Assembly: GCA_963843145.1 (NCBI GenBank)
Contig: CAWJJC010000020.1
Span: forward strand, 1 to 64,000
DNA from: an uncultured delta proteobacterium
GTDB taxonomy: Bacteria > Desulfobacterota > RBG-13-43-22
DNA: 64,000 bases
Reading direction: 5' to 3'
Under the pieces are notes generated by a model that saw nothing but the letters and a program-made list of their open reading frames with translations, ran no database searches and was not told where the DNA came from. Both the position numbers and the translations under genes were made by a program. Position 1 is the stretch's first letter. The number at the start of each line of letters is the position of its first letter. Below, in pieces: positions 2,165 through 6,871 of the stretch.

Positions 2165-2991
2165 CTTTTTGAGACTTTCCGGGCGATCAGATTAAACACC
2201 AAAACCAGGCTGACCAGGATAAAAGACGCCCCCCAGGCCAATCGGTGGAATTCCGGATAAGGGCTGGTGGCATAATAAAAAATGATATGGGGCAGCGACT
2301 CCATGGGCTTAAAAAGATTCCAGTTTAGGAAGGGATTGCCAAAGGAGGTGAAGAGCAGCGGAGCGGTTTCCCCGGTGATCCGGGCGATACCGAGTAAAAT
2401 ACCGGTCACGATGCCGCTGAGGCCGGACGGTATAATCACCTTTAAAATGGTCCGGTGATAAGGCACTCCCAGGGCCAGGGAGGCCTCCTTCAGATGATAG
2501 GGAATCAGCTTTAGCGTCTCTTCCGTGGACTTGATGATTACGGGAATCATCATCATGCTCAAGGCGATACCCCCGGAAAAAACCGAGAAGCTCCTGAAGG
2601 GACGAACGATCCAGGTATAGGCGATGATGCCGATGACGATCGAGGGGGTGCCTTGCAGGATTTCGACACACAGTTTTACCGTTCGCGAGAGGAAGCCCTC
2701 CCGATTTTCCGAGAGGTAGATTCCCGAGGCGATCCCCACGGGCACGGAGAAAAGGCTGGAGAGTATAATCAGAACGAAGGTGCCCACAATAGCGTTAAAA
2801 ACCCCGCCCCCGATTTCTCCCATGGGCCGGGGAACCTCGGTGAGGAAGGCCCAATTGATAGAGCTGATCCCGTTTTTCCCGATATAGAAAAGGATCAGCA
2901 GCATGGGCGAGATGGAAAGAAAAGAGAGGAGGATAATAGACCCTTTGAAACAATTATTTTTGAAAATGCGCCAGGCCGTGTTCGCTTCCAT
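2146..2991 (-). CDS. pstA: Phosphate ABC transporter permease PstA
   Basis: [22 protein letters not shown]; operon position. Confidence 0.93.
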
Positions 2992-3909
2992 CAGGTGACT
3001 TCCCTCTCGGCGGCGATGCTGACTTTTTTGATAACGTAGTTGCCGATGAGATTGACCACCATGGTGACCAGAAACAGCACCAGGGCGATGTTGATCAAGG
3101 AGGAGACGTAAATCTCCAGGGTGGCCTCGGTAAATTCATTGGCAATGACACTGGCCATGGTATTGGCCGGATCAAAGATACTGTGAGGAATACTGTTCCG
3201 ATTGCCGATGAGCATGGTCACGGCCATGGTCTCTCCCAGGGCCCTTCCCAGGGAAAGCAGGATACCGGCGATGATCCCGGAGCGGGCATAAGGCAGGATG
3301 ATCCTCTTAACGACCTCATAGCGGGTGGCCCCGAGAGAATAGGCGGCTTCCTTGAGATCGGCCGGGGCCAGGGCGATAACCTCCCGGCCGATAGAGGCGG
3401 CATAGGGGATGACCATAATGGCCAGGATGAGGGAAGAGGACAACAATCCCGACCCCCTCGGCCAGGACACCCATCTTGATCTCTATGGCCCTGACGATAG
3501 GGATAAGCACAAACAAACCCCAAAACCCGTAGATCACCGAGGGGATGCCGGCTAAAACCTCAATGGAACTCTTCAGGAAAGAGGAGAGGGCCCCTTCTTT
3601 GTAATATTCGCCGAGTAAAATGGAGATCGCGGTGGAAAAAGGTATGGAGATGAGCAGGGCCAGGAAAGAGGTCGCCAAGGTCCCCACCAAAAAGGGAAGG
3701 GCCCCGAACTTACTGGTCACCGGATCCCAGAGACGTCCGCTAAGAAAGGAAAGACCGAAGACCTTAATCGACGGCCAGGCCCGAATCAGCAAGGTGAGGA
3801 AGATACCCAGGAGCAGGGCGACGATTAAATAGGCGAAAAAGGACAAAAAAGTTGAAAACCGCTGTTCCGATTTGTCGATGACCCAGGTGTTGTTTTCCGT
3901 TTCTAGCAT
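2991..3909 (-). CDS. pstC: Phosphate ABC transporter permease PstC (frameshift near 3460, probably an error)
   Basis: ORF 3316..3909 (FGALPFLVGT, IPSVIYGFWG) and ORF 2991..3470 (RALGETMAV) join into one PstC. Confidence 0.9.
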
Positions 3910-4026
3910 ACCAACCGAATCGTTTTTAAGGATCTATAAAAAATAATCCAAGGGGTCAAGGATTCGAGGAGTCAATCCCGCTGAAGCAAGATCGAACCCC
4001 GGAACCCTCGACCCCAATTTTTGTCT

Positions 4027-4068
4027 TAAACCCCCTTGCCCGGGGCGGGCACCCCGAAGCATGAAAAT
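4027..4068 (+). repeat. Dispersed ~41-bp repeat TAA(A/C)CCCC..GGGCGGGCACCCCGAAGCATGAAAAT
   Basis: Close copies at 11806-11847 and 11867-11906; degenerate copy near 7957-7993. Confidence 0.7.
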
Positions 4069-4139
4069 ATGCTTTAAAGGGATCGAGTCGGCTCGTCATT
4101 CCTCTATGTTGAAAAGCAAGTCTTTTATAGAGGTTTTTT

Positions 4140-4528
4140 TTAAATTTATCCCTTCTCCTGGACGACCGCCTGGGTGGCATCCTGAGTGGCATACTGAGAC
4201 CACCTGTGGAGAACCCAGGTGGTCGTCCAGGAGAAGGCCAGGTTTTTTTGCCCTTCTCGATAGATACCCTCTGTTTGAGGGAAAATCGACGAGAAGTGCG
4301 ATCTTTTCGTTAACCGACATCCGGGGAAAGAGCGGCACCAATCTTACTAATCAATCTTCTATTAGCAGACATACCCCTGGATGGATAGCTGCAGCTCCTT
4401 GATTATATTATAAACGTGGGCACGAAGTCTGGACTAGTGCAGACATCGATGAAACCTGAGCTGCAGGAATGACAGATCGTTGCCCACAAAACGACTTATA
4501 AGACTGGTGTTACCCCCGTTCCCGGGTT
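4140..4528 (-). ncRNA. Putative bridge/seekRNA of the IS1111-type element
   Basis: Stem/internal loop at 4416-4487 shows GTCATTCCT and GTCCAGAC, matching the left and right junctions; further hairpins near 4318-4383, 4253-4296 and 4151-4237; RNA ends unknown. Confidence 0.75.
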
Positions 4529-5599
4529 TTACTGAATCACTCCCGGAACATAGTCCACTTGGTTCTTTAACACATAACGAATGCGGTTGAGCAGTCTCCG
4601 GGCAATCTTGACAATGGCCTTGGTCTTCTTCATCCGCCGGCAGTACTCATTAAAGGCCAGCAACAATACCGGATCCAGCCGGGCGGCCGTCCAGGCGGCT
4701 TCGATGAGTACGTCCCGTAGTTGGGCGTTTCGCCGAAAGGTCAGGCCGCCGATATGCTCGGTTTCTCCGCTGACGTGAATGTCGGGGATGAGCCCCACGT
4801 AACTGGCCAGGTGGTCCAGGTCGCTAAAGCGGGATAGGTCACAAAGCTCGGTGAGCAGGATCATGGACGCTAGCGTACTTAATCCCGGGACGGTTTTTAA
4901 GTGCTCCACACTCTTCCGATACACGGGCTCCCGGGAAAGCAGGATGATGCCCCGGTTTACGGAGGCGATCAGTGACTTGAGCTGCTTTAGTTCTTCTAGA
5001 TAGGCCTGAAAGGCCAGATGGCCGCTGGCCCGCTCCATCTGGATCTGTTCGAGCTGGTTAAGAAACTTTTGGGACCACCGACTACGAACGACTTCTTCGG
5101 GCTGATCCAGCCCGTAGAAGAACAGAAAGGACTTGATTTGATTCTTACACCGGGTTTGCTTCCGCACCAAACTTTGCCGGATTCGGACCAGGCTGCGATC
5201 TTCCAACTGGGGTCGGGTCGGAACGTAGATCCCTTTCAGTTCCCCGCTCCGCAGATGCCGGGCCAGCTTGCGGCAGTCGATCCGATCCCGTTTGGTGGTG
5301 CGCTCTTTATTCGTCGTCGGGACATCAGCCGGATGGACCACGATACAGTTGACCCCCTTTTCCTGAAGCTGATTGTGGGTCCAGAAGCCGCTAAAACCGG
5401 CTTCATAGGCCGAATAATAGTTCGCCCCGGGAAAATTCCGTTTCAGATAATGGGCCAATTTGTCCGCTTCGGGAGGCTGGGTAAACTTTTTATGCTCGCA
5501 TTGTTCCGAAAAAATGCTCACGCTCCAGTTCTTTTTATGGACATCCAGTCCCACGTAAATCGATTGACCCGAAAAATCCAATTTGTTAACCTGTTCCAT
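4529..5599 (-). CDS. IS110-family DEDD transposase/recombinase
   Basis: GLDVHK, YEAG, KRDRID (DEDD), C-terminal YVGLIP..HVSGE serine motif, IARRLL. Confidence 0.95.
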   Translation of the reverse strand: MEQVNKLDFSGQSIYVGLDVHKKNWSVSIFSEQCEHKKFTQPPEADKLAHYLKRNFPGANYYSAYEAGFSGFWTHNQLQEKGVNCIVVHPADVPTTNKERTTKRDRIDCRKLARHLRSGELKGIYVPTRPQLEDRSLVRIRQSLVRKQTRCKNQIKSFLFFYGLDQPEEVVRSRWSQKFLNQLEQIQMERASGHLAFQAYLEELKQLKSLIASVNRGIILLSREPVYRKSVEHLKTVPGLSTLASMILLTELCDLSRFSDLDHLASYVGLIPDIHVSGETEHIGGLTFRRNAQLRDVLIEAAWTAARLDPVLLLAFNEYCRRMKKTKAIVKIARRLLNRIRYVLKNQVDYVPGVIQ

Positions 5600-5686
5600 A
5601 GCAAGTCTCCTTTCGGTTGTTTTTTTGTCTGGCACCAAAAGTATAACCGAAAACTCAAGACTTGCCTTTCTATTTCAACATAAGGT

Positions 5687-5767
5687 CTGGACAAGCGAAG
5701 CGCGATCCGGAATCCAGCCTCGGATAAGCTTCGGAGGTCCTGGATACCGGATCAAGTCCGGTATGAC
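5687..5767. repeat. REP-like palindrome, right part (left arm GTCATTC at 4095-4101)
   Basis: ATCCGGAATCCAG...CTGGATACCGGATCAAGTCCGGTATGAC; intact relative at 8016-8132. Confidence 0.8.
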
Positions 5768-5823
5768 TACCTAGGGAAAAGGCCTAAAAAGCGGTGATCA
5801 ATTCTATTTTCGTATTAAATCCC

Positions 5824-6871
5824 CTATTTTAAGACCGGTTTGCCGTTATAGGTCATCGAGTGGACCAGTTTATCCGCTTTGGCAAAGGCGTCCTTGGAAA
5901 GGGGGGCATAATGCAAGGGCTTCGGCATATTTCTGACCGTCGGTAATGACCCATTTTATTAATTTGGCCAGGGTTTCCGCTTTCTCCAGGGTCTTCCCAC
6001 CATAATTTTGCTCTTTGTAGAAGATCAGGTAGGTGAAACCGGCGATGGGGTAACCATCCTGGGCATCGGTATCCGTCAAGGAGATGTGCATATCCTCCGG
6101 CAATTTGGTGTTGGCCGCCAGACTGGTCGATTTAATGGTCGGTTCGATGAATTTTCCGGCCTTATTTTTCAAGGCGGCGGCCGGCATATTGTTTTGCAGG
6201 GTGTAGATGAGTTCCACGTAGCCAAGAGAGCCGGGGATCTGCTTGATCAGTCCGGCTACTCCGGGATTGCCTTTGCCCCCGAGTCCCACCGGCCAGTTCA
6301 GAGAGGTCCCCATACCGACCTTTTCTTTCCATTCGGCACTGACTTTGCTCAAGTAATCGCTGAAGATATTGGTCGTGCCGCTGCCGTCGGAACGATGGGC
6401 CACGGTTATGGCCAGGTCCGGAAGATGCACCCCCGGATTTAAGGCCGTCACCCGCGGGTCGTTCCATTTCTTAATCTTTCCCAGAAAGATATCGGCGATC
6501 ACCTCCGGCGCGAACTTCAGTTTGGGATTGTCGGGCAGATTATAAGAAATGACCACTGAACCGAGGCAGGTGGGGACATGAACGATCGGGGCCCCGGCCC
6601 CTTTCAACTGGTCCTCGGTCATGAAGGCGTCCGTGCCGCCGAAGTCCACCACCTTGCTGCTGAGCTGCTTAATGCCTCCACCGGAACCGATTCCCTGATA
6701 ATTGATTTTAACCTTGTACTCCTGGAAGTATTCGTAGAACATTTTTGAATAAAGGGGTTGGGGAAAGGTGGCTCCCGCACCCAACAATTCCATATCGGCC
6801 GCCCCGGCGGCCGTCCCTAACCCCAAGATCACCAAACCAACCAATAAAAATAATTTACCAATGAATTTCAT
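5824..6871 (-). CDS. pstS: Phosphate-binding protein PstS (frameshift near C-terminus)
   Basis: Signal peptide, GAGATFP, GSGGG, RSDGSGTT, GGKGNPGV. Confidence 0.95.

Follow-up and report, generated by a model that had tools for sequence, protein, structure and literature searches.

A REP-inserted IS1111-type element with predicted target guides in its 3' non-coding end

The first 64,000 nucleotides (forward strand) of contig CAWJJC010000020.1, from an uncultured delta proteobacterium (GenBank assembly GCA_963843145.1), form the stretch of DNA analysed here, hereafter called the window. It contains an insertion sequence (IS) of the IS110 family and IS1111 type, which occupies positions 4103-5688 (1586 bp), carries its transposase gene on the minus strand and interrupts a repeat of the repetitive extragenic palindrome (REP) kind. 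In our view the element very probably picks its insertion site, the REP, by means of an RNA that its 3' non-coding end encodes. What we computed directly comprises the element and its family, the RNA fold, the matches of this RNA to the flanks, the covariation of the two among homologues and the same target at other copies. The mechanism has already been described in 2024 under the names seekRNA and bridge RNA, and REP-targeting IS1111 elements with seekRNAs have likewise been published (PMC11187229); the element is thus a new example and not a new mechanism. Its interest lies in being a clean and previously unannotated RNA-guided recombinase from outside the usual proteobacterial isolates, and in belonging to a natural reprogramming series, in which one scaffold carries several guide pairs, each with its own REP.

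Predicted guides in the RNA end and the REP that they match

The two flanks of the element are the halves of one long REP-like repeat. The left part (4027-4102) ends in ...GCTCGTCATTCC, the same sequence that precedes GGACAAGCG in uninterrupted REPs, and the right part (5689-5767) runs from GGACAAGCGAAGCGCGATCCGGAATCCAG to CCGGATCAAGTCCGGTATGAC and includes a 20-nt piece that is repeated across the genome (5.35 Mb in 32 contigs), with 19 exact copies and, when up to three mismatches are allowed, 36 matches. Two of these 36 matches are the IS-occupied loci and one (C5:53704) is weak and has no REP context, leaving 33 uninterrupted copies. All but one of the 33 read ...CATTCC|GGACAAGCG, the remaining copy having CGCTCC, and there is no T between CC and GG. 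Given that 32 of the 33 read ...CATTCC|GGACAAGCGAAGCGCGATCCGGAATCCAG, the insertion break falls inside the 3' arm of the ATTCCGGA/TCCGGAAT stem. The 12-nt REP core GTCATTCC|GGAC, that is GTCATTCCGGAC, occurs 42 times in the genome, compared to 0.64 occurrences expected for a random 12-mer; GTCATTCCTGGAC, the target with a T as it was first reconstructed, has no occurrence genome-wide. The full REP, a composite unit of about 170 nt found at 33 other loci, comprises two unlike hairpins and a conserved 5' part (...GCACCCCGAAGCATGAAAATAGGCTTTAAA...), and it is more REPIN-like or MITE-like (miniature inverted-repeat transposable element) than a simple REP. Sister genomes contain related REP families with altered stems.

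The RNA end of the element is highly structured. For the minus-strand RNA of 4540-4096 we calculated a minimum free energy (MFE) of -168.4 kcal/mol, compared to -123.6 +/- 6.1 for 100 shuffled sequences (z = -7.3). It contains a predicted target-binding hairpin of 72 nt (4416-4487, minus strand), equivalent to a short seekRNA, in which the outer stem GUGGGCA/UGCCCAC, present in the MFE fold, is extended by ACGA/UCGU, and the inner stem reads GCAG.../...CUGC. In 10 sequences, pairing of the outer and inner stems amounts to 90-97.5%, and compensatory changes occur. The matches to the REP lie on the two sides of one internal loop of this hairpin. On the 5' side, the guide GUCAUUCCU (4465-4473, minus strand) equals plus-strand GTCATTCC, the left half of the REP, plus the first element base. 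On the 3' side, the guide GUCCAGAC (4427-4434, minus strand) reads GUCC-AG-AC, where GUCC is the reverse complement of plus-strand GGAC in the right half of the REP, AG forms the core, and AC complements GT, the final two bases of the element (plus strand, 5685-5686), and has no fit to the REP at this place. In other words, GUCAUUCC is the plus-strand left half of the REP, and the remaining guide bases (U and AGAC) match the terminal bases of the element itself at both junctions; in the transposase-strand convention, AGGAATGAC is the complement of the 5' guide, and the 3' guide runs in the same sense as GTCCAGAC. By analogy to bridge RNAs, in which handshake guides pair with two donor bases adjoining the core (PMC11208158), the AC following GUCC-AG is a candidate for handshake-like bases.

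Much of this had been put forward in an original prediction made from the sequence alone, and the analysis agrees with it: the junction strings read as it gave them, the hairpin at 4487-4416 has the outer stem, loop strands and GCAG/CUGC stem that it drew, the matches of 9 and 8 nt to the two flanks lie in one internal loop, and the protein family, subterminal repeats and an RNA end downstream of the transposase gene (tnp) are those of an IS1111-type architecture. Its suggestion that the extra AC serves as a handshake guide is likewise consistent with the literature, the two bases being complementary to the element end and part of an AGAC kept in 13 of 13 elements. In a check confined to the window (414-nt non-coding region, matches counted on either strand), both matches together, a 9-mer at the left and an 8-mer at the right junction, arose in 6 of the 5000 mononucleotide shuffles and in 5 of 5000 that followed a first-order Markov model, and each one singly in 113-122 and 359-406 of 5000.

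Homologous elements allowed us to follow guides and flanks together. A protein search of 21 genomes of the same order, including the window's own (G000), gave matches at E <= 1e-40 in seven, or six of the 20 others; relatives of full length have 73-79% identity, and fragments occur as well. A scan of a wider collection added two relatives of 56-59% identity in metagenome-assembled genomes (MAGs) of Syntrophales, and relatives of 46% identity in Myroides/Paenimyroides (six loci from a single-protein search). Close relatives have a common layout, which on the transposase strand is LT-AG-ACCTTATG(A)TTGAAA ... tnp ... RNA end ... TTTTCAACATAG(A)-xG-RT, LT and RT being the left and right target. 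Across 10 aligned RNA ends, 90.2% of the cells of the two-hairpin structure are paired, compared to 33-41% when the partners are slid by one to three columns; 12 pairs have changed on both sides, and the covariation score was reached by none of 500 shuffles.

Within this constant scaffold, the guides change together with the flanks. The window has the guides GUCAUUCCU and GUCC at the flanks GTCC and AGGAATGAC, L012 has GUCACCCCU and CGCC at CGCC and AGGGGTGAC, and L013 and L018 have GUCACCCCU and CACU at CACC, a U:G-compatible difference, and AGGGGTGAC. Single deviations occur in L014, where GUCAUUCCU and CACU stand beside CACG (one mismatch), and in L015, where GUCAUUCCU and CGCC stand beside CACC (G:T-compatible). 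The 3' guide is CGCG next to a CGCG flank in L020 and L021 and CCUC next to CCTC in L007, and the 5' guide of L008 is GUCAUUCU at the flank AGAATGAC. The 5' guide follows its flank in that GUCACCCCU goes with GGGGTGAC and, in L011, GUCAUUCUU goes with AAGAATGAC; in the 3' guide, the 4-7 nt before AGAC covary with the flank, and AGAC itself is invariant in the elements listed. Fits are poor for L021, the right flank of which matches only partly, and for L007, the right end of which looks degenerate. In this last element, from a Syntrophales MAG, the right end reads CAACATG followed by unrelated bases, and an intact target copy (..GCTC-AG-AATGACC) stands about 35 nt further on.

We scored the 10 elements with both flanks, excluding L016 (a contig end with an internally deleted second hairpin), L019 (a fragment) and L008 (a contig start), each of which is missing one or both flanks; L004 and L005 from Myroides/Paenimyroides were kept out of the guide tests. 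The guides are identical to their own flanks at 50 of 60 left and 84 of 90 right positions, compared to means of 3.4/6 and 7.1/9 for the flanks of other elements, and the summed own-flank score was reached by 1 of 20,000 flank permutations, a figure that is not a true probability and overstates independence because the elements are kin. The 13 elements, which come from a handful of related genomes, hold at least five left and at least four right guide variants. Such a series can help to define the freely programmable RNA positions in IS1111-type systems, and it shows elements following the diversification of host REP families. Some relatives are decayed: L016 (genome G008) is without most of the second hairpin, and two copies on contig 12 of genome G015 (L020-L023) have split transposase frames and intact RNA scaffolds.

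Further copies of the element are found at the same target. A second genomic copy on contig 6 (86848-87999; L002/L017) is 100% identical to the window element over 1107 bp and sits in a different member of this REP family, flanked by GTCATTCC on its left and GGACAAGCG on its right. It is without the sequence of window 4104-4593, a loss that takes in the entire RNA end together with the right inverted repeat and the final ~20 codons; the frame runs on into the flank, and the intact junction is one T shorter than that of the window copy. We considered its deletion end-point (window 4594) as a pseudo-end used by the recombinase, but no scheme fitted the junction and we treat it as an ordinary deletion. 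A DNA contig of 1952 nt from metagenome run X4 spans 4093-5692 with 52 differences (97% identical), and unrelated sequence starts immediately outside TCGTCATTCC and GGAC. Given this context, the X4 contig represents a near-identical element at a different locus, with flanks that agree just where the guides read. Taken with the window and the contig 6 copy, there are three contexts with GTCATTCC...GGAC in this lineage. The original prediction had aimed the element at a genomic REP family and looked to covariation and other copies for its check, and on both counts it has held up. Solo copies of the RNA module were not found in this genome, nor was an empty-site allele of this locus in the metagenome contigs searched; a joint over the element in run X1 (4071 to 5689, with 23 other letters between) was rejected as an empty site, being another REP copy.

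The recombinase, the second hairpin and a proposed mechanism

The boundaries 4103-5688 follow from the REP consensus GTCATTCC|GGAC and are shared by the second copy and the homologues; within them, the element reads AGACCTTATGTTGAAA...TTTCAACATAGA on the transposase strand, with no target duplication counted. The junction letters are GTCATTCCTCTATGTTGAAA at 4095-4114 and TTTCAACATAAGGTCTGGAC at 5673-5692. Perfect subterminal inverted repeats of 10 bp lie at both ends, TTTCAACATA (5673-5682) on the transposase-proximal or left side, where it is kept in homologues, and TATGTTGAAA (4105-4114) at the RNA end on the right. Outside these repeats, the transposase strand has a 6-nt extension (AGACCT) on the left and a 2-nt extension (GA) on the right, the latter being 3 nt (GAA) in six homologues. 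IS1111 elements are described as having subterminal repeats of usually 11-13 bp (range 7-17), with extensions of 7 or 6 bp on the left and 3 bp on the right (PMC11187229, PMC11208160). The window element has the features of this group, namely subterminal repeats with asymmetric extensions and a longer non-coding region downstream of the transposase gene, with 89 nt from the left end to the ATG and 426 nt from the stop codon to the right end.

The transposase gene (4529-5599, minus strand) has 356 codons, with an ATG at 5599, GGAG 6 nt upstream and a stop codon at 4529-4531. Its product contains the domains PF01548 (DEDD_Tnp_IS110; 7.5e-15) and PF02371 (Transposase_20; 1.6e-17), both exceeding gathering scores, and it scores 193 bits (cut-off 140) against NCBIfam NF033542, 'IS110 family RNA-guided transposase'. 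The nearest solved structures, at low similarity, are the transposases of ISCro4 (E 9.6e-6) and IS621 (E 0.003). The segments GLDV, KRDRID and HVSG align onto the corresponding stretches of the ISCro4 transposase chain, and we regard them as the catalytic stretches on the basis of positions D11, E60, D102, D105 and S241 reported for IS621 (PMC11208158). The C-terminal motif GLIPDIHVSG conforms to the pattern GL-P----S(t)G given for IS1111-type transposases (PMC11187229), and the IS1111-type transposases of IS4321/IS5075, from a plasmid collection, are only 24% identical over residues 17-303 (80%; E about 2e-8). The 'intact' RNA-guided recombinase of the original prediction stands for the gene and the RNA scaffold, while its activity and the production of the RNA are predictions only.

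Downstream of the target-binding hairpin, the alignment of homologues reveals a second hairpin of the same layout (4347-4404, minus strand), with the outer stem AAUCAA/UUGAUU and the inner stem GCAGCUAUCC/GGGUAUGUCUGC. The 3' loop strand UAAUAGAAGA (4355-4364) includes AUAGA-AG-A, which matches, in order, the element's right end, AG as the core and the initial base of the left end (8/8), and is the sequence expected over joined element ends. The motif persists in the 46-59% relatives, and in L011 the loop strand (AUAAAAGA) has changed together with the element end (CATAAA). Its 5' loop strand fits the left end less well, with a bulge, and the second hairpin is therefore a likely, but not an established, donor-binding loop. 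Both hairpins could be part of one predicted long seekRNA or bridge RNA of about 174 nt (4336-4509, minus strand), seen in the MFE fold, the scaffold of which is conserved in the 10 aligned homologues: CACCAGUCUUA (4499-4509) pairs with UAAGAUUGGUG (4336-4346), a pairing that may close the two hairpins together. In alignment A2 (columns 5-10/178-183) this closing stem is 66.7% paired as aligned, with a column shift in four rows.

Published work on IS1111 elements and IS621 is the basis on which we infer production of the RNA, its binding by the transposase, formation of a circle and the way in which strands are exchanged; combined with this work, these features suggest the following mechanism. 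The RNA of about 4509-4336 (minus strand) would carry two hairpins of one design. In the first hairpin, GUCAUUCC(U), having the same sequence as the plus-strand left half of the REP, would pair with the opposite strand, and GUCC-AG-AC would pair with plus-strand GGAC, with the CT core and with the final two bases of the element. In the second hairpin (4404-4347), AUAGA-AG-A, the joined-end sequence, would bind the element in its excised, circular form. Strand exchange between circle and REP at GTCATTCC|GGAC would follow, carried out by the DEDD/serine recombinase (5599-4529).

One base at the junction and the weighing of alternatives

Both guides spell GTCATTC-CT-GGAC, which is one base longer than the REP consensus; in terms of the core, the element brings CT and the REP offers CC at that position. 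Since CC is directly followed by GG in the uninterrupted REP, without an intervening T, the CT is no simple target duplication, and the REP is regained on removal of the element only when T4103 is taken as an element base. The original prediction, which had flagged an uncertainty of one base, is thus upheld in that removal restores a REP-like palindrome on this count, and corrected with regard to a CT core duplication. Element and flanks together give the REP consensus with no duplicated base, and homologues differ by one base at this point. In five insertions (window, L012, L014, L020 and the X4 contig) joining the flanks gives back a perfect REP palindrome, with AG on the transposase-proximal side (donor core) and the target's own GG on the other. 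Six insertions (L013, L015, L016, L018, L021 and L008) have AG at the right junction too, that is, one extra A, and the truncated second copy forms a third type with one base fewer. Among uninterrupted REPs of genome G015, 23 of 26 are without the extra A and 3 of 26 have it; these three (L035, L037 and L050) read CACC-AA-GGGG, CACC-AGA-GG and CGCC-A-GGGG, with the additional bases exactly at the insertion point of related elements.

Several explanations may account for these junctions. The extra-A REPs may be excision scars or preferred sites, and rare variant sites may have been the targets of the extra-A insertions; another possibility is that the strands are cut at positions set by different guides, with repair or replication giving several outcomes. 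Assembly indel errors may also contribute, which we considered because the neighbouring pstC reads frameshifted, although the window's own junctions are confirmed by the independent X4 contig. One possibility would combine these observations, namely that the guides are written for a longer target and the junctions record how a mismatched core was resolved by strand-specific exchange, followed by replication or repair. We consider this unlikely as it stands; if true, the junctions would naturally show where and in what order IS1111-type elements cleave the strands. Alternatively, as the original prediction had it, the target could be a REP variant GTCATTC-CT-GGAC, its CT being a core that target and element share, each with one copy. 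Both guides indeed spell CT/AG, L050 among the extra-A REPs of G015 is exactly LT-AG-RT, and the six insertions with AG on the right as well would fit. In this genome, however, the T is present in none of the 42 sites, 32 of the 33 uninterrupted REPs listed read CATTCC|GGAC, and the flanks of L012, L014, L020 and the X4 contig rejoin to a perfect palindrome only without the extra base, which leaves a CT-containing target unlikely.

Two further alternatives concern guidance by RNA itself. The element could be real while its loop-flank matches are due to chance or to a carried REP fragment, the protein alone picking the target and the hairpins serving as terminators or attenuators. The matches are short and, taken singly, not rare among shuffled sequences. 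Their joint occurrence is rare, however; they run in opposite senses on two sides of one conserved internal loop, the scaffold stays invariant in homologues while exactly the guide bases change with the flanks, and the published family works by RNA guidance (PMC11187229). Target choice by protein alone is therefore highly improbable. Alternatively, the element may be an RNA-guided IS by descent that is now inactive here, a relic fixed between pstS and pstC. One full and one truncated copy against 42 unoccupied consensus sites would agree with this, as would the one-base offset between guides and REP consensus and a circle and RNA known only by prediction. Yet the open reading frame (ORF) is open, the catalytic-motif stretches are present and the RNA scaffold is identical to that of homologues in conserved columns. 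The two genomic copies are fully identical over 1107 bp, and the 97% copy in another metagenome context argues for recent movement. We regard inactivity as possible but doubtful.

Several results weigh against site selection by the element's own RNA. There is one complete copy in the genome against 42 free consensus sites, none of the uninterrupted sites carries the CT that the guides specify, so that the target core is mismatched by one base, and the kinship of the elements lowers the value of the permutation test. The 5' strand of the second hairpin (AAGG-nn-CU) fits the left end AG-ACCTT only with a bulge of 1-2 nt and varies among homologues, and the joined ends would form only weak promoter-like hexamers, TTTTCA-18-TGAAAT as found by script or TTGCTT-17-TATGTT as found by eye. 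An Rfam scan of 3500-6500 (E up to 1) returned as its sole result a meaningless microRNA match (19 bits, gathering score 230), and thus no curated family for this RNA. Contigs from RNA libraries (runs X19 and X20), one from a 93%-identical relative over 4239-4703 and one exact contig of 169 nt inside the gene, are no evidence of transcription, RNA ends or habitat.

Comparison with known systems and neighbouring features

Its predicted guidance by an RNA of its own places the window element among systems for which similar arrangements have been reported. IS1111-type seekRNAs are encoded downstream of tnp, with the complement of the top strand located 5' of the match to the bottom strand (Siddiquee et al. 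2024, PMC11187229), and occur in short (70-100 nt) and long (145-170 nt) forms (PMC11187229), which the 72-nt hairpin and the ~174-nt long form of the window fit. A close parallel is ISPa11 from Pseudomonas aeruginosa, an IS1111-family element that targets REPs and likewise has subterminal repeats, a long non-coding region downstream of tnp and a short hairpin RNA with the same order of top-strand complement and bottom-strand match (PMC11187229). In contrast to ISPa11, the window element resides in a host of another phylum (delta-proteobacterial/Syntrophales-like), has another REP and other guides, and its non-coding end is longer (426 nt) and holds an extra conserved 27-bp hairpin. The pair ISEc11/ISXne4 also keeps its RNA stems while swapping target-matching bases together with the flanks (PMC11187229); the series described here is larger, and the targets that it tracks are variants of a single REP superfamily and not unrelated ones.

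IS621, from the IS110 group, shares with the window element two internal loops and a guide with the sense of left target plus core (PMC11208160, PMC11208158), and a second guide that complements the core and the right target, with two donor-matching handshake bases after it (PMC11208158). It also has a CT core on the strand taken as top, and its loop layout is seen when the plus strand of the window is taken as top. Unlike in IS621, the RNA of the window element is located at the 3' end, the CT strand is opposite the transposase gene, the subterminal repeats are long, the left strand of the proposed donor loop fits poorly and the protein is only distantly similar. ISPpu9 and ISPpu10 of Pseudomonas putida are inserted in REPs as well, have AG at both element boundaries on the transposase strand, and occur as copies with and without the downstream RNA module (PMC12288879). 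The Ssr9 module of ISPpu9 is a separate, dispensable hitch-hiking unit with its own ends (PMC12288879), whereas the module-less copy in the window's genome looks like a deletion, given that the last ~20 codons of the gene and the right end are also gone.

The extra hairpin in the non-coding end (4151-4237, minus strand), with a stem of about 25-27 bp, lies near the RNA end and is present in seven of seven aligned elements. The consensus structure of alignment A3 has 39 predicted pairs, 31 of them in this hairpin; in 14 of the 39, both partners have changed and pairing is retained. That it serves as a terminator or as a structure at the 3' end of the RNA is a guess: a promoter and terminator scan of 3900-5900 gave two promoter-like sites and one terminator-like site, not above shuffles and none at the long hairpin, and we therefore do not call it a terminator. 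The T run at 4245-4251 after the hairpin (plus strand) is not conserved in relatives. We also considered the hairpin as a decoy target, given that it contains TCCTGGAC, and rejected this idea, as the corresponding bases of homologues do not follow their guides.

The element is flanked by pstS (5870-6871) and pstC, all in the same orientation, and may therefore affect the pst operon. The pstC-like gene just downstream (2991-3909, minus strand) is present as two overlapping ORFs (3316-3909 and 2991-3470), which suggests a frameshift near 3440-3470, due either to a pseudogene or to an assembly indel.

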